Origin: Thermodesulfobacteriota bacterium
GTDB lineage: Bacteria > Desulfobacterota_D > UBA1144 > Nemesobacterales > Nemesobacteraceae
Direction of reading: 5' to 3'
Assembly: GCA_965202785.1 (NCBI GenBank)
Contig: OZ241855.1
Span: 1,216,001 to 1,280,000, forward strand
DNA length: 64,000 nt
The position numbers and the translations under genes are program-made. Shown here one piece after another: positions 3,981 to 53,252 of the stretch. Position 1 is the stretch's first letter, and the number at the start of each line of letters is the position of its first letter. Below the pieces are notes generated by a model, which saw only the letters and a list, made by a program, of their open reading frames with translations, had not been told where the DNA came from and searched no databases.

Positions 3981-6548
3981 ATGAAATATATAAAAGGAAA
4001 AAAGTTTGTGCGAAGTGTTGAAGATCTCAACCGCGGAGGCGGCCAATCTTCTAAAGTGGCAGATAAGATATTTGCTGCTATAGGAAAGTTAGGTATCGGC
4101 AAAGACCCCTTCAAAGGTTTTAAGCTTACGAGACACGGTGAAAGCCGCATTAAGAACTGTCGAAAATATGATCTGGGAAATGGCTGTCGGCTTATTACTG
4201 TGGTCAAAGATGGAAATTGTTTTTTGCTTTACGCCGGTTCTCACGATGATTGTGATAAGTGGCTTGACAGGCACAGAGGTATTACTCCATCCGTGAATAA
4301 TGATGGAAATATTGTTGAAACGTTTCAATCTAATAATCTTGATCCGTCTATTCGGATAATAGGCAATTCCGATTCTTCGCATGGAAAACTTTTTGAAAAA
4401 CTTGAAGATAAAGACTTTGATTTTCTAGTTGAAGGTGTCTCTTGGAGAATCGTTAATCAAATAACAGATCTGGAATCAATCAACGACGAAGATGAAATCT
4501 ATGAAGTTGTCAAAGATATAGAAGATGAAGACAGGCGGAAAGCAATTTACGATACCTTCGTGAAGCTTAGGCAAGGTGACATCAAAGCTGCCGTTAATTG
4601 TGTGGCTTCTTTACGTGGTGATATTGTTTCTATTGGATCTGATACTGAAGTTAAAAATAGCGATGATTTCCATATTATTACAACAAATTCACCTCGAGAG
4701 TTAGAACAATTTGAATATTACATTCGCAATGCTGATTATCGGGACTGGATGATGTTCATGCATCCAGAGCAGCAAAGAATGGCAACTGCTGAATTTTCCG
4801 GTCCAACCAAACTTACCGGAGTGTCTGGGTCCGGCAAAACCTGTATTGTGGTAAAACGCGCTATCACACTTGCTGAACGTTATCCGGATGAAAAGATTCT
4901 CGTCTTGACTCTGAACCGCCCCTTAGCTGGCCTGATTCAAGATCTTGTTTTGAATTGTTGTGCTTTTCCAGAAGTGCGAGGCCATATTAAGGTAGCACCT
5001 TTTTTTGAGCTTTGCCAAGAATTTCTGGGTGAATTCGAACCGGAAAACAAAAAAACTTATGATGATCAGACGTGGAAAACGCTTGAACACATTGATGATG
5101 TATGGAGGGAGTTTTATAGACTTGAACTTAATAATAGGGATGCGGAGTGTATGTTGCCCGTTCATGATTCTCTTATATCCCAAGGTATTGACGCCGAGCG
5201 TTACATACGAGAGGAGTTTGACTGGATTAGAAGTGCTATGAGTTATGGTCAACGTGAAAGGTATCTAGGCGGAATTGAACGTTCAGGAAGATCCTATCCT
5301 TTACTTAAAGAATTTCGCTCTATGTTATTAAATGGTCTCGAAAAATGGGAACATAAAATGCGGGAAATTGGGATAACCGATTATTTGGGAGTTGCCACGG
5401 CTCTTTACCGCCATAGGGATAGATTACAACCGACTTATAGATGTATACTCATCGACGAGTGTCAGGACTTTGGCACGATTGAACTTGAACTCGTAGTGGC
5501 GCTTGCTCAAGACGGAACTGATAACCTCTTTTTTTGTGGAGATGCAGCACAACATGTTTCGTGGAAACATCAGTCTTTTAAAGATGCAGGTATTTCTTTG
5601 CCTGGGGCCCGTTCAAGGAAAATTGATCAAAACTATCGCAATAGTCGTAATATCTTGCAGGTAGCCTATGAGATCCTCTGTAACAATCTTACTGAAGAAA
5701 TGATTGAGAAAGAAGATTTCGAGATACTTGATCCGAAATTTGCCAATTTCGGTGGACCGAAACCATTACGACTCAAAGCAAGATCGCTTGAGGATGAAAT
5801 AGCATACGCAATTGCTTATGCAAGATCGGAACTCGAAGGTTATCCAAATCGCAAGGCGTGTATCGCTATCTGTGGTTACACCCTTCAACAAATACAAGAA
5901 TTGGGCAAGAGGAACAGTCTCCCCGTTCTTGAAGGTACTCTAAGCATTGAAAAAGAGCCACTTTTTCTTTCAGATCTAGAGCAGACGAAGGGTTTTGAGT
6001 TCGATTTGGTATGTATAGTGAATGCAGGTAAAGGGGTAATTCCTAACCTTGCAACGCCCTCGCACGAGCAGTTCAGGGATTTGTCTAAGCTGTATGTCGC
6101 TATGACTAGAGCGAAACTTAAATTAATACTTTCTTATTCTGGAGATCCTTCTCCTTATCTTGAATTTAACAGAGCGGAAGAGTACTTTCGCTCCGAGATG
6201 TGGGAGGATTCTTTCCACGGGGAGAAAATCCTGAAGCTAGGTGTGCCACCGAATTTAGATGAATTGCACGAGAAGCATTTACGGTACGATTTGCCGTTGT
6301 TTGACAAAATGAAGATAGAAGAGTTTCTCTATACTCCTCAAGCCCGCGGACTTTCACTTAGGCTAATCAGAAAACTCCGGGATTTGGTGAAAGGGAAAAC
6401 TCGAAACAAGAAAAATCCCCTTATAAAGTGGCGAGTGCTGTCTGAAATTGCAGAAAAAGCAATTGAATATCCAGATGAGGCCCGCAAACACTTTGGATCG
6501 GAATACGAAGAATTTCAGGAACTTGTAGAGCGTCTAGGTCTTCACTAA
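3981..6548 (+). CDS. SF1 (UvrD/Rep-like) helicase with N-terminal RelE/YafQ-like domain; candidate defence gene
   Basis: Helicase motifs GVSGSGKT, LIDECQD, GDAAQ, NYRNS, KGFEFD, LYVAMTRAK. The first ~100 aa end in RLITV..FLLYAGSHDD. AT-rich relative to its flanks. Confidence 0.8.
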   Translation: MKYIKGKKFVRSVEDLNRGGGQSSKVADKIFAAIGKLGIGKDPFKGFKLTRHGESRIKNCRKYDLGNGCRLITVVKDGNCFLLYAGSHDDCDKWLDRHRGITPSVNNDGNIVETFQSNNLDPSIRIIGNSDSSHGKLFEKLEDKDFDFLVEGVSWRIVNQITDLESINDEDEIYEVVKDIEDEDRRKAIYDTFVKLRQGDIKAAVNCVASLRGDIVSIGSDTEVKNSDDFHIITTNSPRELEQFEYYIRNADYRDWMMFMHPEQQRMATAEFSGPTKLTGVSGSGKTCIVVKRAITLAERYPDEKILVLTLNRPLAGLIQDLVLNCCAFPEVRGHIKVAPFFELCQEFLGEFEPENKKTYDDQTWKTLEHIDDVWREFYRLELNNRDAECMLPVHDSLISQGIDAERYIREEFDWIRSAMSYGQRERYLGGIERSGRSYPLLKEFRSMLLNGLEKWEHKMREIGITDYLGVATALYRHRDRLQPTYRCILIDECQDFGTIELELVVALAQDGTDNLFFCGDAAQHVSWKHQSFKDAGISLPGARSRKIDQNYRNSRNILQVAYEILCNNLTEEMIEKEDFEILDPKFANFGGPKPLRLKARSLEDEIAYAIAYARSELEGYPNRKACIAICGYTLQQIQELGKRNSLPVLEGTLSIEKEPLFLSDLEQTKGFEFDLVCIVNAGKGVIPNLATPSHEQFRDLSKLYVAMTRAKLKLILSYSGDPSPYLEFNRAEEYFRSEMWEDSFHGEKILKLGVPPNLDELHEKHLRYDLPLFDKMKIEEFLYTPQARGLSLRLIRKLRDLVKGKTRNKKNPLIKWRVLSEIAEKAIEYPDEARKHFGSEYEEFQELVERLGLH

Positions 6549-6704
6549 AAAATGTTCGAATTGCTGGACGAAGTGAAATTAATCAATTGGTAATACTCAG
6601 TTTCAAGGTAGTTGAAGCGTATTTTTAGGTCTGGTGACCGTTTAACCTATTATGCTTCACAGATGTTAGGGGTGATTTCAGCTTTTCTGTTTTGAGGGAT
6701 ACAG

Positions 6705-7391
6705 ATGAAAATTCTGGGAATCGAAACGTCTACTTTCTCGGGAAGCGTGTCAATATCCGATGACGATGCGCTTCTTTGCGAATATGTCTTCAACACCGGT
6801 CCGAGGCATAACGAGGTGCTTATTCCCACGATCGAGCGGCTTCTTTCGGACTGCGGGCTCGGAAAAGATGATCTGGATGCGGTCTGCGTGTCAGTGGGTC
6901 CGGGTTCTTTCACCTCTCTTCGCATAGGGGTCTCCACGGCGAAAACCCTTTGTTATTCCTTGGGAACCGACCTCGCGGGAGTTCCATCCCTTGAAATTCT
7001 CACGTCAAATGCGCTTTGGTGCGGAGATGACGTGTGCGCCATGACCGACGCTGGCAGAGGGGAGGTCTTCTTTTCATTTTATGATTCCAAAGGCGAAGAG
7101 ATAAACCCCGCGGAAATCGCCACACCGGAGTCTGTATGCGCCGGAGTGAGAAGAAAGACCGTTTTTGTGGGCAGCGGAGCCCTGCTCCACGAAAATCTCA
7201 TACGGGATTCCGTGGGGGAGAGAGCCGTGTTTCTGCCTGCGAATCTGAACACCCCGAGGGCGTCTGGCTGCGCGCTTTTGGGGAGAAAAAAGATTCTTTC
7301 CGGACATAAGGACGATCCCTTCACTCTAATTCCTTTCTATCTTCGCCGCTCCGCTGCGGAACGCAAAGCGGTATCAGCGGAAGAAAGGTAA
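6705..7391 (+). CDS. tsaB: tRNA threonylcarbamoyladenosine biosynthesis protein TsaB
   Basis: MKILGIETST, GPGSFTSLRIG, C-terminal PFYLRRSAAE. Confidence 0.95.
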   Translation: MKILGIETSTFSGSVSISDDDALLCEYVFNTGPRHNEVLIPTIERLLSDCGLGKDDLDAVCVSVGPGSFTSLRIGVSTAKTLCYSLGTDLAGVPSLEILTSNALWCGDDVCAMTDAGRGEVFFSFYDSKGEEINPAEIATPESVCAGVRRKTVFVGSGALLHENLIRDSVGERAVFLPANLNTPRASGCALLGRKKILSGHKDDPFTLIPFYLRRSAAERKAVSAEER

Positions 7392-7498
7392 AAATCTTTT
7401 CCCCTAGTGGTCTTGAAGTTGTACGCACGCGGTGATAAATTAAGCGGATGGGTTGTTGGTACTCCACATTTTAAAAACAACCAGGGAGATATAGTAAA

Positions 7499-9211
7499 AT
7501 GGCCAAGATGCTCGGCGCACAGATGTTCTTTGAGACGCTTCTTCACCAGGGTATTGACGTGGTCTTCGGACTGCCGGGAGGTTACGTTCTCAAGGTCTAT
7601 GACGTGATGACCGATTACACCGACAGGATAAATCACGTGCTGGTGAGGCATGAGCAGGGGGCTACGCACATGGCCGACGGGTACGCAAGAGCTTCGGGAA
7701 AACCGGGAGTGGTTCTTTGCACCTCGGGTCCTGCGGCAACCAACACCGTTACCGGTATTGCGACGGCGCAGATGGATTCATCTCCCATAGTTATCTTTAC
7801 GGGACAGGTTCCGACTCAGTACCTTGGAAGCGACGCCTTTCAGGAAGCCGATCATATCGGCATAACAAGACCCTGCACGAAACATAACTACCTTGTACGA
7901 GAAACCAGGGATCTTCCGAGAGCGATGAAAGAGGCTTTCCACATAGCCGGCACCGGAAGACCCAGCCCTGTTCTGGTTGATATGCCAAAGGACGTTCTCA
8001 TAGGAGAAGACGAGCTTGTAATCCCCGAGGATCACGAGATAGATATCAAAGGTTACAAGCCCACTACGAGGGGAAATCCTTCGCAGATAAAAAGAGCGGT
8101 GGAGATGCTGCTTGCCTCAAAGCAGCCCGTTATTTATTCCGGGGGAGGAGTTATCTGGTCCGGGGCTACGGATGAACTGCTTGAGTTCTGCCACCGGCTT
8201 CAGATACCTGTAGCTTCAACACTCATGGGCCTTGGGGGTTATCCGGCGAGCGATCCTCTCTTCATAAGCATGCTCGGGATGCACGGTTCCTACGCCGCCA
8301 ATATGACAGTTACCGAATCGGACCTCGTTATCTCGATCGGCGGACGGTTTGATGACAGGGCTACGGGCGGGAACTTTGATGAGTTTGCTCCCAACGCGGA
8401 GATTATACATATAGATATAGATCCCTCCTCGATAGACAAGAACATAACGGTTCAGTGTCCGATAGTAGGGGATGCCAAAGTTGTTCTGCGCCAGATACTC
8501 GATGCTCTCCCCGGGGAGATTGACCTTGAGGGAAGGGAATCCTGGCTCAGGCGGATACGGGACTGGAACGAGAAGCATCCGCTCACCTATTCCCAGGGAA
8601 GCGAGAAAATTCTCACGACCTACGCCATAGACACGCTTTACAAGCTCACCAAAGGGGACGCCATAATAGTTTCCGACGTAGGTCAGCACCAGATGTGGGT
8701 GGCCCAGTTCTACAAGTTCGAAAGACCGAGAACCCATCTTACCTCAGGGGGCCTGGGAACCATGGGATTCAGTTTCCCTGCGGCTATGGGAGCGAAATAC
8801 GCAAGGCCTGACGAACAGGTTATATGCGTTGCCGGCGACGGAAGCTTCCAGATGAATTTCCAGGAGCTCGCGACTGCGGTTGAAAACAATCTGGATCTTA
8901 AGATTATAGTTTTCAACAACCGTCACCACGGAATGGTAAGGCAGTGGCAGACCATGTTTTTTGAGGGCAATTTCTCGGCATCTCGGTTTGAAGTGCTGCC
9001 GGATTTCGTGAAGCTCGCAGAAGCGTTTGGAGCCCGCGGCCTTCGGGCGGTGAAGCCCGAGGAGCTTGAGCCCACTCTCAGGGAAGGCCTCAACACTCCG
9101 GGAGTTGTTCTCATGGAGATAGAAGTCGATTGTACGGAAATGGTTTATCCGATGATAGCCCCCGGTGCATCGATGGACAACATGATAATGATGCCCGCGG
9201 ATCTTGCCTGA
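7499..9211 (+). CDS. ilvB: Acetolactate synthase, large subunit
   Basis: RHEQGATHMADGYAR, DVGQHQMW, SGGLGTMGF, GDGSFQM..NN TPP-binding motif, GMVRQWQ. Confidence 0.96.
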   Translation: MAKMLGAQMFFETLLHQGIDVVFGLPGGYVLKVYDVMTDYTDRINHVLVRHEQGATHMADGYARASGKPGVVLCTSGPAATNTVTGIATAQMDSSPIVIFTGQVPTQYLGSDAFQEADHIGITRPCTKHNYLVRETRDLPRAMKEAFHIAGTGRPSPVLVDMPKDVLIGEDELVIPEDHEIDIKGYKPTTRGNPSQIKRAVEMLLASKQPVIYSGGGVIWSGATDELLEFCHRLQIPVASTLMGLGGYPASDPLFISMLGMHGSYAANMTVTESDLVISIGGRFDDRATGGNFDEFAPNAEIIHIDIDPSSIDKNITVQCPIVGDAKVVLRQILDALPGEIDLEGRESWLRRIRDWNEKHPLTYSQGSEKILTTYAIDTLYKLTKGDAIIVSDVGQHQMWVAQFYKFERPRTHLTSGGLGTMGFSFPAAMGAKYARPDEQVICVAGDGSFQMNFQELATAVENNLDLKIIVFNNRHHGMVRQWQTMFFEGNFSASRFEVLPDFVKLAEAFGARGLRAVKPEELEPTLREGLNTPGVVLMEIEVDCTEMVYPMIAPGASMDNMIMMPADLA

Positions 9212-9579
9212 TACCGCGCTATGCTTTCCGGGCCGGACTCAAGGTTCTTTCCCCGCCTTCATATATGCTTTTCTGATTGCTGCCATTGCTAAGCCGGCCA
9301 ATGCTGTTTACATAAGTCTGTTGTGTACGCAGATGGCCGTCGGGTTCTGGAAGAAAAACCGCGGGTGGTCGATTCAATCGGCGTTTTAATCTGTCCGATA
9401 TTGTTTCCGGACTTACGCATGAGCCCTGAGAACATCATCGATGTCCGAAAGAATCCTTGAAATAGGCTCAGTTTGGATGGCGGTTAAAATTTAATTCCCT
9501 TCCTGCGCCCTCCTCCTGTTCCTTGAACTATCCGTTCTCGCGGGCAATAATAGTGAGGCAGTTTCTTTAGGACCCTGAA

Positions 9580-46732: not shown

Positions 46733-46750
46733 AACTGAGGTTTGTTTCTC

Positions 46751-47173
46751 ATGAGTTACGAAAAAGACGAAATAATAAAGGCGAACAGAAAATTCTACGA
46801 CGCTCGTAATCGCTACGATGTCGAGCTCATAGAGCAGGTCTGGCTTACTGATGGCAGAGCCAAATGCGTTCACGCGGGCTGGCCGATAATTCTCGGATGG
46901 GAAGCGATAAGGGAGAGCTGGAAGACCATTTTCGAGACGGGTGGATTTGACCGCGTTGATGTTTCGAATTTCTTTGTTGATGTGAAGGGAAATTCTGCCT
47001 GGCTTAACTGCGTTGAGAGAGCGACTTACTCAATAGACGATCGCAGGGTTGTGGTGCTGGCCCAGGCGACCAACATATTCGAGCTTGCCGAAGGAGAGTG
47101 GAAAATGGCGCTTCACCACGCCTCCCTGATGCCTATTCCTCGCAAGGAGATTGATTACGAGAATCTTCAGTAA
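46751..47173 (+). CDS. NTF2/SnoaL-like (DUF4440-type) protein
   Basis: AN..FY.A, W....A.CVH.GW..I.GW..I..SW..IF, ATNIF....G.WK...HHAS. Confidence 0.85.
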   Translation: MSYEKDEIIKANRKFYDARNRYDVELIEQVWLTDGRAKCVHAGWPIILGWEAIRESWKTIFETGGFDRVDVSNFFVDVKGNSAWLNCVERATYSIDDRRVVVLAQATNIFELAEGEWKMALHHASLMPIPRKEIDYENLQ

Positions 47174-48170
47174 GGAGACTGAGTCTCTCCCCGATTAAGT
47201 AGACCAGCTGCTGGCAACCTTCTCCCGTGACCGCGGATATGCTGAAGGTTTCGATATCCCTTTCTTTAAACTGCCTTGTTGTCTCTGCGCCTCTGTCCCT
47301 GGCTTCGACGATGTCGATTTTGTTGAGAACGACCAGTTGAGGCTTTTCGGCAAGCTTCGCCGAGTACTCACTTAGCTCCGAGTTGATCTTGTCAAAATCT
47401 TCTACGGGATCCCTCCCCGAAATCGGGTCAAGATCAAGCATGTGAACCAGAAGGCGGGTTCTCTCCACGTGTTTTAGAAACTGACTGCCAAGCCCAAGTC
47501 CCTTGTGGGCTCCCTCGATGATCCCGGGGATGTCTGCGATCACGAAAGACTGGTGGTCTCCGTAGCTTACTACCCCGAGATTGGGAACGAGGGTGGTGAA
47601 AGGATAGCCGGAGATTTTGGGTCTCGCGGCCGAGATCTTCGATATGAGGGTTGATTTTCCAGCGTTTGGAAACCCGAGGATGCCGACGTCGGCAAGCACC
47701 TTGAGTTCAAGTTTTACTTCCCTTCGCACTCCGGGGCGCCCGCTCTCTACTTGTCTCGGCGCCCGGTTAGTCGCCGATACGAACCTTGAGTTTCCCCTGC
47801 CCCCGCCTCCTCCCTTGGCTACGGTAAAGCGCTCACCATTCTTGGTCAGGTCCGCAAGCGTCTCCCCGTCTTCAAAGGAAGTTATCACGGTTCCCGCAGG
47901 AACGGGGATGATTAGATCGGAACCCGATTTTCCATGCTGGTCCTTGCCCCTTCCGGGCTGGCCGTTTTGGGCTTTGTATTCTTTTTTGTACCTGTAGTCA
48001 AGAAGCGAGGACATATTTGCGTCCGCGACTACCACCACGTCTCCCCCCTTGCCGCCGTCGCCGCCGTTGGGACCTCCCTTGGGAACAAACTTCTCCCTTC
48101 TGAAACTGAGGCATCCGTCGCCGCCGTTACCTGATATAACGGTTATTTTCGCCTCGTCTATGAATTGCAT
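47133..48170 (-). CDS. obgE: GTPase Obg/CgtA
   Basis: FIDEAKI...GNGG.G..SFRREKFVP.GGP, GFPNAGKST, YPFTT, DIPG, NKID. 3' end overlaps the NTF2 gene by 41 nt. Confidence 0.97.
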   Translation of the reverse strand: MQFIDEAKITVISGNGGDGCLSFRREKFVPKGGPNGGDGGKGGDVVVVADANMSSLLDYRYKKEYKAQNGQPGRGKDQHGKSGSDLIIPVPAGTVITSFEDGETLADLTKNGERFTVAKGGGGGRGNSRFVSATNRAPRQVESGRPGVRREVKLELKVLADVGILGFPNAGKSTLISKISAARPKISGYPFTTLVPNLGVVSYGDHQSFVIADIPGIIEGAHKGLGLGSQFLKHVERTRLLVHMLDLDPISGRDPVEDFDKINSELSEYSAKLAEKPQLVVLNKIDIVEARDRGAETTRQFKERDIETFSISAVTGEGCQQLVYLIGERLSLLTEDSRNQSPCEE

Positions 48171-48262
48171 TTTGGTTTGGGCGGGTGAGAATCATCTTGC
48201 TGTGGCTTCGGTCTTGCGGATGGTCTGGATGTTTTTCGGACGACCCCCTCCGGGGCGAAGCC

Positions 48263-48685
48263 CTAAAGCTGTTTTTGATGCTCCGCTATGTCCTTTTTTA
48301 CGTTTCCCGTTATACCTTCCCAGTATCTCCACCAGTAGGAATCCGGTTCGTGGTTTGCCTTCTGCTGTTCGGCCCAGATGAGAACCTGCATGTGGTCTCC
48401 GTGATATAGCACCAGCTTCTTCGCGGCGTCGGCAACTTCTTCATCGTTTATCGGAAGCTTGTTGAGCTCCCCGTCAAAAACGGCCTTTATCTCTTTTATA
48501 TAGGGCGCGGCGGCACTTGAAATCTCCTTGATTTTCTCAGCCGGGGTTGCAACATCTCCCGGAAAAGATTCCTTTATGTTTTTCATGAGATCTACGAAGT
48601 CAAGAAGATTATCAAGAGAGTCCTGCGCCTTCTTCACTTCCTTAAGACATTGCGTTAGTTCCTTTACGTTTGTGTTTAAAGACAT
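48263..48685 (-). CDS. Hypothetical helical protein (140 aa)
   Basis: AGGAGG RBS before ATG, host-like codon usage, no competing gene; no recognisable motif. Confidence 0.7.
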   Translation of the reverse strand: MSLNTNVKELTQCLKEVKKAQDSLDNLLDFVDLMKNIKESFPGDVATPAEKIKEISSAAAPYIKEIKAVFDGELNKLPINDEEVADAAKKLVLYHGDHMQVLIWAEQQKANHEPDSYWWRYWEGITGNVKKDIAEHQKQL

Positions 48686-48697
48686 TAACCCGCCTCC

Positions 48698-48711
48698 TTG
48701 ATTGCAATCAT
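48698..48711. promoter_or_regulatory. Palindromic operator, FNR/CRP-box-like
   Basis: Perfect 12-bp palindrome TGATTGCAATCA (48699-48710); TTGAT-N4-ATCAT matches the FNR consensus at 9/10; abuts the RBS of the 140-aa gene. Confidence 0.4.
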
Positions 48712-49109
48712 GCCCCGCCCGGGGACAGTTCTGATTCTACCACTAGATAACGCAAAAACCCAGAATATTTTCACAGTCTGCTTCTTGGTTATCGATGAAA
48801 GAGCCGCGTAATGCTTCTCACACAGCAAGGAGCCATAAAACATATGGCTAGATGCACCCTTATCCTCCGCTCCGTCCAGTGGAAAACCAGCCTTAGCTTC
48901 AAATCATGCCTAGTTATCCGGAAACTCTCTTCCACCTCTCACAAACCCCGGTAATGAGATATAAGCTCCCCCGCCCCTCTCTCCCAATCGTTTCCCGGAT
49001 GTTCACCTTGGTGGAAGCCTGCGAGCTGACCCCGCCTAGGCGCAACCCGCGCATCGTAACGCTGCTACAGGACGCGTAGTGCAGGGAAAGGGCAGATACG
49101 TTGTACGGG

Positions 49110-50126
49110 TTAACTTGGTTTGCGCGCCTTGTGGTAGTACATGGGCGTAAATATCCCCAGACGTCCCGCGTCCACAAGGCTGTCGGCCGCGATATTGAGA
49201 ACTTTATGTACCTCGGATGACCCCTTGGGTACGGCGCGTAAGCTTTCCAGAACGCTCAGGGCCGTCGAGGTAATTTTGCGGCCAAGGGCCGTTCTCGGCA
49301 AACTCCTCAGATTCAGGCTGCTGCCTTCCAGCGGTCTATACCACGGCGTCTTGGGGTCGGCGTCCAGGGCGCGGTCATGCGCCTCGACAAGTTCGAAACC
49401 GACTGCCCGCAGACTGTCGTCTACCTCCGTGAATGAGGCGATTTCGGGAAGAGCGTTGCCATATTCGATTCCTTTCTTGAGTTCCCGATGCTCAGGGTTT
49501 GCGCCGTCGTAAAGCGGGGTCATGCACCAGTCGTAGCCGGCGAAGACCCCACCGGGGCGCAATACGCGGAATATCTCGGCATAGGCGGCGGCTTTATCGG
49601 GCGCATGAGGCATGGCCTCGATATGGTAGGCCGCGTCGAAGCTTCCGTCTTCCGCCGGTATATTCAGGAAATCGCCGTGCAGGACGCCGCAGAGATCGTC
49701 CAGGCCAGCCTTGCTGTTATACGCAGAGCACTTCCCGAGCTGATATTCGTTGATGTTTAGGCCCACGATCGAAGCGCCGAACTTTTTTGCCAGGGCCCGC
49801 TGGGGTCCGCCCACTCCGCATCCGGCATCCAGCACCTTCATGCCCGGTCTCAATCCAATGGCTTCGCCCAGAAAATTCTGATGGCCGGCAATGGATTCCT
49901 CGAAAGACTCCCCCACCTTCATCGGTGCGAAGTGAAACGACTGTCCCCATCCATACTCGTAAAAGTCGGTAATGAGGTCGTAAAACGCCGTCACCATGCG
50001 GGCGTACTCTTTCTTGCCCTGGCCCTGGCTTCTGCGGTACTTCGACAGCGTCTCCGCCGTGTCCTCCGGCCGAATTGCCTTAGAGATTGGGTTATGGAAG
50101 TCAGCCGCCACTCGCTTCTCCCTCAA
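49110..50126 (-). CDS. smt: Sterol C-24 methyltransferase (ERG6/SMT family)
   Basis: Region I FYEYGWGQSFHF, SAM motif LDAGCGVGGP, region III IEAMPHAP, region IV GYDWCMT, IEYGNALP, C-terminal GIFTPMY...RKP. Start may be GTG at 50111. Confidence 0.9.
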   Translation of the reverse strand: MREKRVAADFHNPISKAIRPEDTAETLSKYRRSQGQGKKEYARMVTAFYDLITDFYEYGWGQSFHFAPMKVGESFEESIAGHQNFLGEAIGLRPGMKVLDAGCGVGGPQRALAKKFGASIVGLNINEYQLGKCSAYNSKAGLDDLCGVLHGDFLNIPAEDGSFDAAYHIEAMPHAPDKAAAYAEIFRVLRPGGVFAGYDWCMTPLYDGANPEHRELKKGIEYGNALPEIASFTEVDDSLRAVGFELVEAHDRALDADPKTPWYRPLEGSSLNLRSLPRTALGRKITSTALSVLESLRAVPKGSSEVHKVLNIAADSLVDAGRLGIFTPMYYHKARKPS

Positions 50127-51198
50127 CCGGATTATTGGCGCGGTCGTCCGGGTAGAATTGCTGATACCATTTACGCATCTTATTCAAGGGGCGTTGCCGG
50201 TAAATTTTCCTTTTCCAGACCTCCACATCCTGTCGCCACTGTGAGATCCAGTTACCAATCACGTAGGAAATAAATATTCGCGGCACATATCGGGGAGCGA
50301 ACCACCGGAAAGTTACCCGTTGCTTCAGCGCCTCGACAGGAGTGTGCGTCTGGAACATTATTATTTCGCCGATTCTCGGAATATGGAATTCGAACTTCAC
50401 AATACTCCCGGGACCAAAAAAGGTGATCAGTGCTCTGGCTCTGGTGCTCTCGCGAATCCGGCCTCCTATTTCAAGCATCGTCTCGTCTTGGAAATAGGCA
50501 ATATGCTCAAGTGTGTCATCAAGAAACCATGACGGCTTGTGTCGAATTCTTACCCAAGGCAATTTTATGTTGGTCCAAGGGATGACCATGGTTCCATGGA
50601 GTTGCGAGAAATGATGAAAGTCGACGCTATTCTCGGCAAATTCAATAATGTGCATCTCTATTTCGCCAGCGTCGTACTGACCGCGGTGAATCAACTGCTG
50701 ATTGTCGATCTTGGGCTGAGGCGGTATCCGATATGGCGCCTGTTCGCCCTGCCGCACCGAACGGTAAATCATGATCATGCCGTAGTAGTCGATTGCTTCC
50801 CAATGCCGGTGAACGAGAGGCCGGCCCTCGACGTGGGAGGGTGGATGGCAAACCCTGCCGCCTCCGTCCAGCTGCCAGCCGTGAAAAGGGCATTCCAATC
50901 GGTCCCCTTTGACTTTACCATAGGCCAGGTTTGCACCCAGATGCGGGCAGAATGCATCTAAAGCCGCAATCCGGCCGGATGTCTGGCTACGAAACAGAGC
51001 GATTTGCTCCCCCAAGCACTGAACATGCTTCACTTTTCCCTGCTTGATTTCTTTGGAAGATGCTACCCTGTACCAACCGTCTGGAAAAGGCGGCGGGTAG
51101 GTGGACTCTCTATAACTTGTCAGATTATTAGATATGAAAGGGCCTCCATTCCCGATGGAACCACAAGCGATTTTACCGCCGGGGCAACTTGCTAACAC
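50101..51198 (-). CDS. Rieske non-heme iron oxygenase, Neverland/DAF-36 (cholesterol 7-desaturase) or KshA-like
   Basis: PPPFPDGWY, Rieske CPH-x16-CPFH, iron motif ENSVDFHHFSQLH, QDVEVW..K, RKWYQQFY; AGGAGG RBS before GTG. Confidence 0.85.
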   Translation of the reverse strand: MLASCPGGKIACGSIGNGGPFISNNLTSYRESTYPPPFPDGWYRVASSKEIKQGKVKHVQCLGEQIALFRSQTSGRIAALDAFCPHLGANLAYGKVKGDRLECPFHGWQLDGGGRVCHPPSHVEGRPLVHRHWEAIDYYGMIMIYRSVRQGEQAPYRIPPQPKIDNQQLIHRGQYDAGEIEMHIIEFAENSVDFHHFSQLHGTMVIPWTNIKLPWVRIRHKPSWFLDDTLEHIAYFQDETMLEIGGRIRESTRARALITFFGPGSIVKFEFHIPRIGEIIMFQTHTPVEALKQRVTFRWFAPRYVPRIFISYVIGNWISQWRQDVEVWKRKIYRQRPLNKMRKWYQQFYPDDRANNPVEGEASGG

Positions 51199-51275
51199 TG
51201 TCCCCCTCCTCCCATTTTTTGCCTATGGGAGAACTTTAGGTTTCATGGTTTCGCACCTCTGTTTTTCAAAATTCT

Positions 51276-51296
51276 ACATATAGTAACATATAGTAA
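51276..51296. repeat. Tandem 10-bp direct repeat (ACATATAGTA x2) upstream of the sterol operon
   Basis: ACATATAGTA-ACATATAGTA-A read directly from the sequence. Confidence 0.6.
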
Positions 51297-51565
51297 GTAC
51301 TGAGTCATTTAAAACAGTCGCTATGAATAAAATTTTCAGGGATGATTAAGTTGTTTCATTGTGTTATCTCTCATGATAAATGACCTCCCTGATCAAAAAT
51401 TCTCCTTTTTTTCAGGATAGCCAGCCCCTTGCAAACGAGAAGATCAAATCATGATGATTGTGGACGGTTTAAAGTTTAAGTGGTGAGAGGAAATTGCCGG
51501 GAGAGTCACGGCAACTGATAATTTCCACTACTTGATAAAGTCTTTCTGGGAATGCTCTTTAGTGA

Positions 51566-52381
51566 CTACTTTGTTCTATACATCAAGAGCCCAGGCTTGT
51601 TTCTCATGTAGGTGGCAAGCTCCTCGTCCAGTACCTTTCCGTGTACTGTGGAAGCGTGACGCAGGTAAACCACGCCGTCCTTTCTAACGGCGATTCCCGT
51701 GTGAGAGACGTCAAGACCGTCTTTACCGGAGTAGATTCCGAGGTAGTCCCCCGTTTTTATCTCCCGCAGCACCTGCGGGTTTAATTTTTCAGAAGGAACA
51801 TAGCTTAAGTCCCTTTTTACTGTCGCAAGCCCTGGAAGCCAGGGAGAGCCGTCTGTTTTTCTGTTCAGTTCCTTGGTCACGGTTACCGTTGCGTCGCCCC
51901 CGACTTCCCGGGTTACATCACGAGCGTTCTTATCGTCTCCGGTCACCCAGTCGGAGAAAAAATGTTTCCTGTTCTCCCATCGCACCGTACCGTCTTTGTA
52001 TCTTGTTTTCGCAAGCTTTTCCTTGAATTCTCCGAAATTTTCCGAAAGCCTGAGCGACTCCACGTAGTCGATATAGGTAAAGCAGTCAACCCCCGAGAAA
52101 TCCACCGTAAGCTGCTCCGCCTCGCCGCTTGCCCCCCCAAGGGTGTTTCCGGCATAGGGAGTTTTGAGAAATTTTTCCGAGAGAAATTCTATTTTGGCTT
52201 CGGGACCGTCTTTTAAAGCTGCCTGTTCCATAAGGGTTTCTATCTCCTGCTGCGTCCAGTCTCCAAGGATCACCTTTTCTGAGTGTGCGGTCGAGAAGTC
52301 TTTTCCGAAGACCGTGAACAGGAACTTGGCCGCGATAACTATGACGACCAGAAGAAAGAGATTTTTGATTATTCTTCTCAT
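51566..52381 (-). CDS. DUF1460 NlpC/P60-like amidase
   Basis: N-terminal membrane anchor, TPY..NTL, DCFTY, R.HFFSDW, GLDVSHTG, HAS. Confidence 0.85.
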   Translation of the reverse strand: MRRIIKNLFLLVVIVIAAKFLFTVFGKDFSTAHSEKVILGDWTQQEIETLMEQAALKDGPEAKIEFLSEKFLKTPYAGNTLGGASGEAEQLTVDFSGVDCFTYIDYVESLRLSENFGEFKEKLAKTRYKDGTVRWENRKHFFSDWVTGDDKNARDVTREVGGDATVTVTKELNRKTDGSPWLPGLATVKRDLSYVPSEKLNPQVLREIKTGDYLGIYSGKDGLDVSHTGIAVRKDGVVYLRHASTVHGKVLDEELATYMRNKPGLLMYRTK

Positions 52382-52385
52382 AGTT

Positions 52386-53252
52386 CTACCCCGGCGACCC
52401 GATATTTATTCCGGCAAGGAGGAAAAGATCATCTCCGAGCAGGTAAAGAATGGCCGAAAGCGAAAGAAAGGGACCGTAGGCTATGGCATGTCCCGGATCT
52501 TTCTTGCGCAGTATTATAACCGAGAGCCCGATCAGGGTTCCGAGGATGGAACTCAGAAATATTATGACCAGCACCCCCCACATTCCGAAAAAGGCTCCCA
52601 GCATCGCTACGAGCTTTACGTCGCCCATTCCCATTCCTTCTTTTTTTCTCAAGTTCCTGTATGCCATGGCGATCAGTAAAAAAGCTCCTCCTCCGAGCAG
52701 CGTTCCCCCTATAGAGTTGAAAATGGCAATACTGGCCGTCGCGGGCAGAAAGTCCGCAAGGCCGGAGGAGAAAACCACCTCGGCCGCGCCTCCCCAGTCT
52801 GTTCTGATCACGTTTAGCACAACTCCGGCCGCTATTCCTGGAAGCGTTATCATGTCGGGGATTATCAGGTGTCTTATGTCTATCAGTGTTATAGCCACAA
52901 GTCCCGTGCAGAGCGCCAGGTAGAAAAGCAGTTCGAGCGACACTCCGAACTCCCTGTAGAGGAAAACCGCCAGCACCGCGCAGAGAAGTTCCACAAGCGG
53001 GTACTCGGCTGATATCCGCTCTTCGCAGTAGGCGCACCTTCCTCCGAGCAATAGCCAGCTTAGAATCGGAATGTTGTGAAGGGCCTTTATGGGGGTTTCG
53101 CAGCTCGTGCAGCGGGAGCGGGGAGAGACTATGGATACCCCGGCTGGAATCCTCCTTGTGCAGACATTCGCAAAGCTTCCGAGTGCTGCTCCCAGAATGA
53201 ACAACCATATTTCGGGAACGATGCTATCAAGAAAGAGAAAAGAACTTTCCAA
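52386..53252 (-). CDS. pilD: Prepilin peptidase/N-methyltransferase
   Basis: GSFANV...R.P, RS.C..C, NIP..SW.LL.G.C..C, IDI....IPD, GMG.GDVKL, GPFL. Confidence 0.93.
   Translation of the reverse strand: MESSFLFLDSIVPEIWLFILGAALGSFANVCTRRIPAGVSIVSPRSRCTSCETPIKALHNIPILSWLLLGGRCAYCEERISAEYPLVELLCAVLAVFLYREFGVSLELLFYLALCTGLVAITLIDIRHLIIPDMITLPGIAAGVVLNVIRTDWGGAAEVVFSSGLADFLPATASIAIFNSIGGTLLGGGAFLLIAMAYRNLRKKEGMGMGDVKLVAMLGAFFGMWGVLVIIFLSSILGTLIGLSVIILRKKDPGHAIAYGPFLSLSAILYLLGDDLFLLAGINIGSPG

Follow-up and report, generated by a model that had tools for sequence, protein, structure and literature searches.

A Candidate Mobile Cassette for Sterol Editing, Pairing a Neverland-Type Rieske Oxygenase with a Sterol C-24 Methyltransferase, in a Putative Sponge Symbiont

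Introduction

What might a pair of sterol-type genes be doing in a bacterium whose genome gives no sign of a route to the sterol nucleus? The question is raised by a stretch of 64,000 nt (hereafter, the window) from a Thermodesulfobacteriota bacterium, covering positions 1,216,001 to 1,280,000 of contig OZ241855.1 in assembly GCA_965202785.1. Here, a gene for a Rieske oxygenase runs into a gene for a sterol C-24 methyltransferase (SMT; this copy is called SMT1 below). The initial annotation, made from the DNA letters of the window, saw in them a compact cassette that edits host or dietary sterols. In this work, we compared the pair with homologous loci, with the rest of its own genome (G000) and with other genomes of the same genus. 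The explanation that we consider best, with a probability of roughly 0.6, is that the two genes would make up a mobile cassette, coupled in translation, for the editing of imported sterols in a host without a sterol pathway of its own. Coordinates of all the features discussed are collected in Table 1.

Results

The Rieske protein gave two Pfam matches, Rieske (79 bits, cut-off 20.3) and KshA_C (51 bits, cut-off 23.3). It possesses the CxH...CxxH motif together with a 2-His-1-carboxylate site in a KshA_C-type catalytic domain: the cluster ligands are C84, H86, C103 and H106, the iron ligands are H196, H201 and D324, and all of them were invariant across nine aligned sequences. Close to its two ends, it carries YPPPFPDGW (N-terminal) and KWYQQFYP (C-terminal). 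Hence, the marks by which the initial annotation had recognised a Neverland-like enzyme (the PPPFPxGW start, the Rieske and iron motifs, and the WYxQFY end) are all present, although the last of them also occurs in solved KshA and is not Neverland-specific. The N-terminal extension of ~80–100 residues found in eukaryotic Neverland (Nvd) proteins, where it is a membrane anchor, is absent from the window protein. Its closest relatives, 66–76% identical, come from metagenome-assembled genomes (MAGs) titled Binatia, Thermodesulfobacteriota, Alpha- and Gammaproteobacteria (including Ca. Poriferihabitaceae) and Ca. Dadabacteria, and the next closest, ~48% identical, come from Nannocystis and Enhygromyxa. 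Annotation pipelines label homologues of 46–49% identity as ‘cholesterol 7-desaturase/dehydrogenase’; the automatic names of the ESM Atlas (‘cholesterol 7-desaturase’; ‘7-dehydrocholesterol reductase-like’) were not used as evidence. A scan of N-terminal extensions (E ≤ 1e-5) revealed no Pfam domain in any of 27 Rieske representatives longer than 500 aa and five of 417–499 aa, and thus neither GPP34-Rieske nor SMT-Rieske fusions among them.

Named eukaryotic Nvd sequences (Drosophila, Danaus, Bombyx, Hyalella, Caenorhabditis, Capsaspora and others) were retrieved with a Heterolobosea transcript as the query, the only named sequence among 10 cluster representatives. A first quick tree of 63 rows contained a clade of 55, composed of 16 eukaryotic and 39 bacterial sequences (SH-aLRT 99). 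For a careful tree, 25 rows were dropped, the eight longest branches among them, and 38 were kept. The Nvd clade (11 eukaryotic and 22 bacterial rows) was then supported at 100/99 on a branch of 1.24, its bacterial part likewise at 100/99, and a nine-row, multi-phylum group including both Nvd-type copies of the present genome at 100/100. Actinobacterial loci chosen as a KshA outgroup proved to be distant KshA kin only (119 bits), and the replacement rows were true KshA (623 and 776 bits to solved KshA) and SdmA-like proteins (416 and 403 bits). With these rows added, a quick tree of 42 sequences kept the Nvd clade (SH-aLRT 96) and placed the SdmA-like genes of two genomes in a clade of their own.

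The window protein belongs to the bacterial sister group of the eukaryotic Nvd rows. The kinship first suggested by its motifs was upheld in both comparisons: the protein groups with named Nvd/DAF-36 sequences (100/99 and 96). Two other identities were tried and rejected. As a KshA 9-alpha-hydroxylase, the protein reaches 93 bits to 4qdf, against 623–776 for true orthologues, and stands in a separate clade; as SdmA, it reaches 59 bits with NCBIfam NF052579 against a cut-off of 600, over residues 42–196 only, and again stands in a separate clade. Judging from this placement, the window enzyme belongs in the Neverland/DAF-36 clade as a bacterial representative. Nvd acts at C-7/8 and KshA at C-9, both in ring B of the sterol. 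We predict, with moderate confidence and as a best guess from clade membership, that the window enzyme is a sterol ring-B C-7 desaturase.

The function of SMT1 as a sterol methyltransferase appears well supported by its domains and residues. It matches PF08498 Sterol_MT_C (75 bits, cut-off 21.7) and PF08241 Methyltransf_11 (72.5 bits), and it contains FYEYGWGQSFHF and LDAGCGVGGP. The ERG6/SMT signature regions first reported for this gene are indeed there: SMT1 and its paralogue SMT2 (see below) share GWGQSFHF as Region I, with Tyr81, and DAGCGVGGP as Region II. With residues numbered as in yeast, following a 2025 preprint (10.64898/2025.12.19.695621), and the numbers transferred by offset, 19 of the 25 residues conserved in SMTs active in vitro match in both proteins at a constant offset; W286, G333, L341, G352, F357 and P359 were placed by eye in the C-terminal domain after a shift of the offset. 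Propylating SMTs combine Gly249 with Phe81 and/or Phe83, a combination that SMT1 does not have; SMT1 and SMT2 carry Tyr81, Tyr83 and an Asn at the offset-equivalent of 249. According to the available text of the preprint, Gly249 is necessary for C30 products, and a G249N exchange keeps C29 and loses C30 (10.64898/2025.12.19.695621). Thus, SMT1 looks active but not propylating, and we predict that it performs one or two methylations (C28, perhaps C29) rather than three. As SMT1 does not have the residues tied to 24-isopropyl production, the relevance that had been suggested for C28–C30 sterane biomarkers is weakened at its C30 end.

Both genes are under purifying selection. The ratio of nonsynonymous to synonymous substitution rates (dN/dS) was 0.13–0.25 for the Rieske gene against four homologues and 0.16–0.29 for SMT1 against SMT2 and the SMTs of loci L012 and L003 (0.29 for SMT1–SMT2). 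Counting both genes, seven of the eight pairs computed lay at 0.13–0.29, the exception being SMT1–SMT3.

As first described, the two genes are co-oriented and overlapping; both minus-strand reading frames are intact. The overlap amounts to 26 nt if the longest SMT frame, from TTG 50126, is taken. However, SMT homologues are mostly 333 aa long, and AGGGAG lies upstream of GTG 50111, so the SMT probably starts 8 nt before the Rieske stop. The resulting overlap of 11 nt would be as in typical cases of translational coupling, and the same Rieske-then-SMT junction is found at the homologous loci L003, L006, L009 and L012. A GGAGG-type ribosome-binding site stands just before the Rieske GTG. The promoter of the pair is presumably located in the upstream flank; a sigma-70 consensus scan of this flank found no minus-strand site, and the site count was not above that of shuffles. 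On the downstream side, there is a terminator-like hairpin (48803–48826), a single site versus 4.0 expected in shuffles and not significant. Three short stretches of the flanks recur in other genomes of the genus (Table 1), none of them has a further copy in its own genome, and the structure of the 153-nt stretch is not unusual (z = −1.3). The SMT genes have a GC content of 0.57–0.58 versus 0.507 for the genome.

The long non-coding flanks noticed at the outset (424 and 367 nt) proved real, as did the housekeeping surroundings: the neighbours in the window are QueG, a SnoaL-like protein, Obg, an AmiA-like amidase, a prepilin peptidase and a CDC48-type AAA ATPase. An insertion carries the pair. 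We searched window positions 46742–53252 against the genomes of 35 other species of the same genus and read the spacing from the match table. The conserved flanks, 2,002 nt on the left (46742–48743) and ~1,690 nt on the right (~51567–53252), lie no more than ~31 nt apart in 29 of these genomes; five of the remaining six were too diverged for judgement, and one gave no match. None of the 35 carries the pair at this site. By alignment, the borders of the insertion fall at 48743/48744 and at ~51557–51566. Contigs of the public runs X1 and X2, which may represent the source sample, span both junctions with zero mismatch. Run X3, from a separate study and labelled sponge metagenome, yielded an empty-site contig in which 48743 is joined to 51588, together with low-depth fragments of the insert that are nearly identical, each having one mismatch. 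At the insertion, neither terminal inverted repeats nor a target duplication were found, and its flanks contained no Rfam families; these flanks are unique, without copies elsewhere in their own genome.

In a second species of the genus, represented by G044, the pair forms a 2.4-kb insertion at a different intergenic site (L012:7705–10064), which is empty in the present genome (G000:C1:895386–895465); the two insertions have only their coding part in common. Further traces of movement and loss lie around SMT2, which is 93% identical to SMT1 in DNA, the match extending ~80 nt into the Rieske 3' end. SMT2-type genes of G039, G048 and G063 retain 35–130 nt of the Rieske 3' end, and at the SMT2 spot, G067 has a broken Rieske gene and a partial SMT. 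Such remnants, the decayed pair of G067 among them, point to an ancestral island that carried barrel, Rieske, SMT, LolA and RND genes in this order. The best reading of these comparisons is that the window pair is a recently inserted, strain-specific extra copy of a mobile two-gene cassette. Part of the original view thus stands, in that the linked pair is real; the pair is not a lone module, however, and appears to be an extra copy derived from a larger set of genes for sterol tailoring and transport.

The linkage that had been proposed from the window is found in other genomes. We examined 12 loci from 11 genomes with a Rieske protein 66–75% identical to that of the window. A full SMT follows directly downstream on the same strand at four of them (L003, L006, L009, L012), a 5' remnant of an SMT (the first ~100 codons) does so at three (L008, L010, L011), SMT pieces lie ~7 kb off at one (L002), and no SMT is present at the other four (L001, L004, L005, L007). 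The order Rieske-then-SMT, whole or decayed, is therefore seen in 7/12 close homologues, from symbiont MAGs labelled as four phyla. None of the homologous Rieske loci shares the window’s flanking genes. Of 17 Nvd-type loci at greater distance, L019 (Polyangiales) alone has an SMT directly upstream of the Rieske gene, and no SMT was seen at any of 51 KshA-family loci. Within the genus, SMTs occur in 26/35 other genomes and Nvd-type Rieske genes in 3/35, compared with 0/84 for each in other genera of the phylum sample. From these comparisons, the cassette evidently circulates among sponge symbionts and moves within the genus.

Several of these loci deserve a separate description. In L008, L010 and L011 (Binatia and Thermodesulfobacteriota MAGs), the SMT remnant at ~9043–9393 is followed by a DUF2332 gene. 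In the gammaproteobacterial MAGs of L004 and L007 (~4229–7654), the Nvd-type Rieske gene adjoins an MMPL/RND pump and a BNR (YCF48-like) protein, with no SMT within 8 kb. A metagenome scan with the Rieske protein returned no close relative (best 46%, L115), and SMT genes were near the Rieske gene at one of its 80 loci, L146. On this contig, which lies outside the sponge clade, an SMT, a KshA-like Rieske gene, an SMT-like gene and ERG4/ERG24 stand in a row (L146:2864–7516).

At two Binatia loci, the Rieske gene is found among FA_hydroxylase, DUF7802, GPP34-P450, ERG4/ERG24 and P450 genes and a squalene-epoxidase/cyclase fusion. These de novo clusters extend over ~5487–13933 in L001/L002, and the fusion with oxidosqualene cyclase (OSC) measures 1,269 aa in L002 (11490–15299). 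An SdmA-like gene lies ~11 kb beyond the Binatia cluster (G121:C5:752490–753509). Since these clusters hold an Nvd-type gene and a separate SdmA-like gene, the former appears to occur regularly in bacterial sterol clusters and to differ from SdmA.

The genome that carries the window is a single contig of 1.64 Mb, 96% complete. At E ≤ 0.001, it has no match to the cyclase C-terminal domain PF13243 (PF13249 was not searched separately), to squalene epoxidase PF08491 or to SQS_PSY PF00494; the absence of cyclase and epoxidase first noted near the pair therefore extends to the whole genome, and to squalene synthase as well. NAD_binding_1 (PF00175), the domain of KshB-type reductases, gave no genome match at the same threshold, FA_hydroxylase gave none above its cut-off, and no P450s are present beyond two GPP34 fusions. 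In contrast to this missing nucleus pathway, the tailoring genes are many: three SMTs, two Nvd-type and one KshA-like Rieske gene, two GPP34-P450 and two ERG4/ERG24 genes, accompanied by a 3-beta-HSD-like gene (30 bits), an FAD oxidoreductase, two RND pumps, a LolA-like gene and a weak DUF1302-like barrel. At least 15 further sterol-type genes lie 9–72 kb past the window end. The description of the pair as an isolated unit is consequently correct within the window and does not hold for the genome, which also has paralogues of both genes.

Most of this toolkit is gathered in an island (Table 1). Both of its RND pumps have sterol-sensing-domain matches, and for the P450 domains of the GPP34 fusions, the best solved match is CYP51 (73 bits). 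The dN/dS of SMT3 versus SMT1 is 0.58 at a dS of 0.20, which, with its altered Region I, suggests a changed substrate or relaxed constraint. The zinc-ribbon reading frame upstream of the second Nvd-type Rieske gene is likely a mobile-element remnant.

A further observation concerns another part of the window. An 855-aa reading frame on the plus strand (3981–6548) has UvrD-type helicase domains behind ~260 N-terminal residues without a match, and the lowest-GC stretch of the window (0.41 at 4001–6000) falls in it.

Table 1. Features of the window and of its genome (G000). Coordinates without a prefix are window positions.
Feature	Coordinates	Strand	Description
Rieske oxygenase gene	50101–51198	minus	365 aa, GTG start, intact open reading frame (ORF)
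SMT1 gene	49110–50126	minus	338 aa from TTG 50126, intact ORF; more likely 333 aa from GTG 50111
Gene overlap	50101–50126	minus	SMT start inside Rieske 3' end; Rieske stop 50101–50103
Upstream non-coding flank	51199–51565	minus	367 nt, AT-rich, GC 0.38
Downstream non-coding flank of pair	48686–49109		424 nt; insertion part 48744–49109
153-nt stretch	48817–48969		Downstream flank; recurs in other same-genus genomes; three 84%-identical copies in G038
35-nt stretch	48745–48779		Downstream flank; recurs in other same-genus genomes
Short non-coding stretch	51351–51460		Upstream flank; recurs elsewhere in other same-genus genomes
Insertion with gene pair	48744–51566	.	2.8 kb, between the stop of the AmiA-like gene and the region upstream of a 140-aa ORF
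Lone ERG4/ERG24	C1:1289165–1290265 (L087:9165–10265)	plus	230 bits, more canonical; among RecO and menaquinone genes
Sterol-type tailoring/transport island	G000:C1:1308388–1337956 (L088, L089)		28–58 kb past window end
Island, part 1	1308388–1315893		3-beta-HSD-like with DUF2867, KshA-like Rieske, RND pump, second Nvd-type Rieske
IS1595 zinc-ribbon ORF	L088:15495–15893	minus	132 aa, directly upstream of second Nvd-type Rieske
Island, part 2	1322908–1337956		FAD oxidoreductase, two GPP34-P450, ERG4/ERG24, SMT3, barrel, SMT2, LolA-like, second RND pump
Two GPP34-P450 fusions	L089:4436–6454, L089:6810–8828	minus	672 aa each; adjoin ERG4/ERG24 and SMT genes
SMT3	L089:10404–11405	minus	Non-canonical Region I: Cys81, Arg83, Ile89

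Discussion

The scenario that we favour starts from a cassette host of the Dadabacteria type, a sponge-associated symbiont with a reduced genome and no synthesis of the sterol nucleus. If its bearer cannot build the nucleus, the pair must act on imported sterols, which would come from the sponge host or from sterol-making co-symbionts and would enter, probably, by means of the RND, LolA-like and outer-membrane-barrel genes on either side of the pair’s older copy. SMT1 would transfer methyl groups from S-adenosylmethionine to C-24 of sterols with a side-chain double bond. The Rieske enzyme would, most likely, place a C-7(8) double bond in ring B with the help of O2 and of electrons supplied by a generic ferredoxin system, and the combined products would be 24-alkyl sterols of the delta-5,7 type. 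We regard the case for sterols as the substrate as strong; our confidence in the direction of transport, and in a benefit to host or symbiont, is weak.

Sterols of the delta-5,7 type are common in some sponges. It is tempting to suppose that the symbiont converts host sterols to 24-alkyl delta-5,7 (provitamin-D- or ergosterol-type) sterols with the cassette, the reductases and the GPP34-P450s, and returns the products through the RND, LolA-like and outer-membrane system. This larger story is a tentative one, and we would not bet on it.

Several facts weigh against the editing cassette as we picture it. Chemically, the desaturation of the ring does not depend on the methylation of the side chain or vice versa, and the tight coupling of the two genes is therefore left unexplained by the proposed chemistry. 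The Rieske gene is kept in 3/35 genomes of the genus versus 26/35 for the SMT, which makes the oxygenase look dispensable and often lost. Neither is there a KshB-type reductase (PF00175) in the genome, where a single Fer2 match was found. In both the careful tree and the 42-row tree, the bacterial rows are sister to the eukaryotic ones rather than nested among them, and the multiple alignment shows no more than ~30% identity with named animal Nvd. Finally, in the available text of the preprint, only 4/10 further sponge-metagenome SMTs were active in vitro (10.64898/2025.12.19.695621).

In the strongest alternative, sterols are the substrate of both enzymes but the Rieske chemistry differs, being either a ring B/C hydroxylation, as in KshA, or a side-chain desaturation or hydroxylation that creates the delta-24 bond for the SMT. 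A side-chain desaturase feeding the SMT would account for the tight coupling of the genes. The bacterial clade moreover stands apart from the assayed eukaryotic enzymes (~30–35% identity), and in Binatia the Rieske gene sits inside a de novo cluster, with no obvious place for a C-7 desaturase of the cholesterol type. On the other hand, the clade with Nvd is well supported, and the relatives known to be characterised, Nvd and KshA, act on ring B. No feature seen here indicates the side chain, and the side-chain desaturase, already raised in the initial annotation as a second option, gained no specific support. Weighing these points, we consider a different Rieske chemistry unlikely, though well ahead of the other alternatives.

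The pair might also serve sterol or steroid breakdown, or the detoxification of host sterols, rather than the production of tailored sterols for membranes or signalling. Oxygenases of the KshA_C family are known above all for their part in steroid catabolism, and a KshA-like paralogue and the 30-bit 3-beta-HSD match stand together in the island. Yet SMTs add carbon to their substrates and play no part in catabolism, the KshB-type reductase (PF00175) is absent, and the neighbours are of a biosynthetic type (ERG4/ERG24 and P450s with CYP51 as the best solved relative, 73 bits). A genome of 1.64 Mb also leaves little room for a many-gene steroid degradation pathway, for which no family-by-family search was made. 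Such a catabolic role seems improbable to us.

Still less credit can be given to the idea that the inserted copy is a redundant passenger heading for decay and contributing nothing. It is true that the Rieske gene is deleted or broken in most relatives, that SMT remnants follow it in L008, L010 and L011, and that two further SMTs and another Nvd-type Rieske gene are already present in the genome; nevertheless, both frames are intact with ribosome-binding sites, the catalytic residues of both proteins are all kept, and dN/dS is well below 1, even between SMT1 and the 93%-identical SMT2 (0.29). Equally remote is a substrate other than sterols, for instance a different polycyclic or isoprenoid compound among the lipids of the holobiont. 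In its favour, SMT3 deviates in Region I, the sterol-binding motif (Cys81, Arg83, Ile89), and the RND pumps also resemble hopanoid transporters. In SMT1 itself, however, Region I is canonical and the sterol-MT domain at the C-terminus is retained, the genome has neither a squalene-hopene nor an oxidosqualene cyclase (PF13243), and relatives of the Rieske gene adjoin a squalene-epoxidase/cyclase fusion and ERG4/ERG24.

If the larger, tentative story of host sterols converted and returned is true, part of the ‘unusual’ sterol profile of sponges would be bacterial, made from animal precursors. A bacterium that does not synthesise the sterol nucleus and still keeps, duplicates and moves editing genes points to host–symbiont sterol exchange rather than to independent synthesis. 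Since steranes with alkylated side chains are taken as markers of early animals and algae, it is of importance which organism makes alkylated sterols inside sponges; for 24-isopropyl sterols specifically, the residues of SMT1 speak against its involvement. We also see here the first bacterial candidates for Neverland-type enzymes whose genomic context is clear, and, should the larger story be true, the bacterial Nvd clade would bear on the origin of the entry enzyme of animal ecdysteroid and dafachronic-acid synthesis. The GPP34-P450 ‘symbiosis’ proteins, in turn, are now placed beside sterol genes.

Comparison with Known Systems

As the initial annotation had supposed, the pairing seems new: in the literature searched, with preprint supplements outside its scope, we found no paper on an Nvd-type oxygenase paired with a bacterial SMT and none describing sterol genes in Dadabacteria. 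Hoshino & Gaucher (2021) mention neither Rieske nor Neverland. The closest known systems are the bacterial SMTs of Brown et al. 2023 (PMC10070321) and Brown & Welander 2025 (10.64898/2025.12.19.695621), which, in their available text, agree with SMT1 in family and habitat and largely in conserved residues. The SMTs of the former study are active and belong to de novo clusters with OSC, CYP51, ERG24 and true sdmA/sdmB (44–47% to MCA1016), whereas the window SMT has an Nvd-type oxygenase as its coupled partner, comes from a genome that has no OSC and lacks the Gly249 and Region I Phe residues tied to C30. In the available text, methylation of host-acquired sterols was raised only for a cyclase-less Chlamydiae MAG (PMC10070321). 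The main text contains neither ‘Rieske’ nor ‘desaturase’, and none of the queries of that study was of the Nvd type.

The Neverland/DAF-36 enzymes of animals and protists share with the window Rieske protein their clade, the Rieske and iron ligands and the KshA_C domain. Unlike them, the window protein is bacterial, stands in an operon with an SMT, has no N-terminal extension and is sister to the eukaryotic sequences rather than nested among them. KshA and SdmA belong to the same Rieske/KshA_C superfamily and also have steroid substrates, but the window protein falls in a separate clade, and genomes with a de novo cluster possess an SdmA-like gene beside the Nvd-type one. Within the present genome, the window pair unites an Nvd-type (not KshA-like) Rieske gene with a canonical (not divergent) SMT, while the island holds a KshA-like Rieske gene and the divergent SMT3.

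The two GPP34-P450 fusions of this genome connect it to the GPP34_L fusions of a recent survey (Microbiome 2025, PMC11706023). In the available text of that survey, GPP34-P450 fusions are reported only from sponge symbionts, GPP34 is linked to phagosome evasion, and the word ‘sterols’ does not occur. Another relevant parallel is found in the clusters of steroid genes (CSGs) in symbionts of Ircinia sponges (Kelly et al. 2022, PMC9531527), whose available text mentions neither Rieske, nor a 7-desaturase, nor Dadabacteria. Like the cassette, these are sterol genes spread horizontally over many symbiont phyla and kept under purifying selection, with SMT enriched. They are, however, ERG24-CYP51-LSS synthesis operons (PMC9531527), while the present genome has tailoring genes only.

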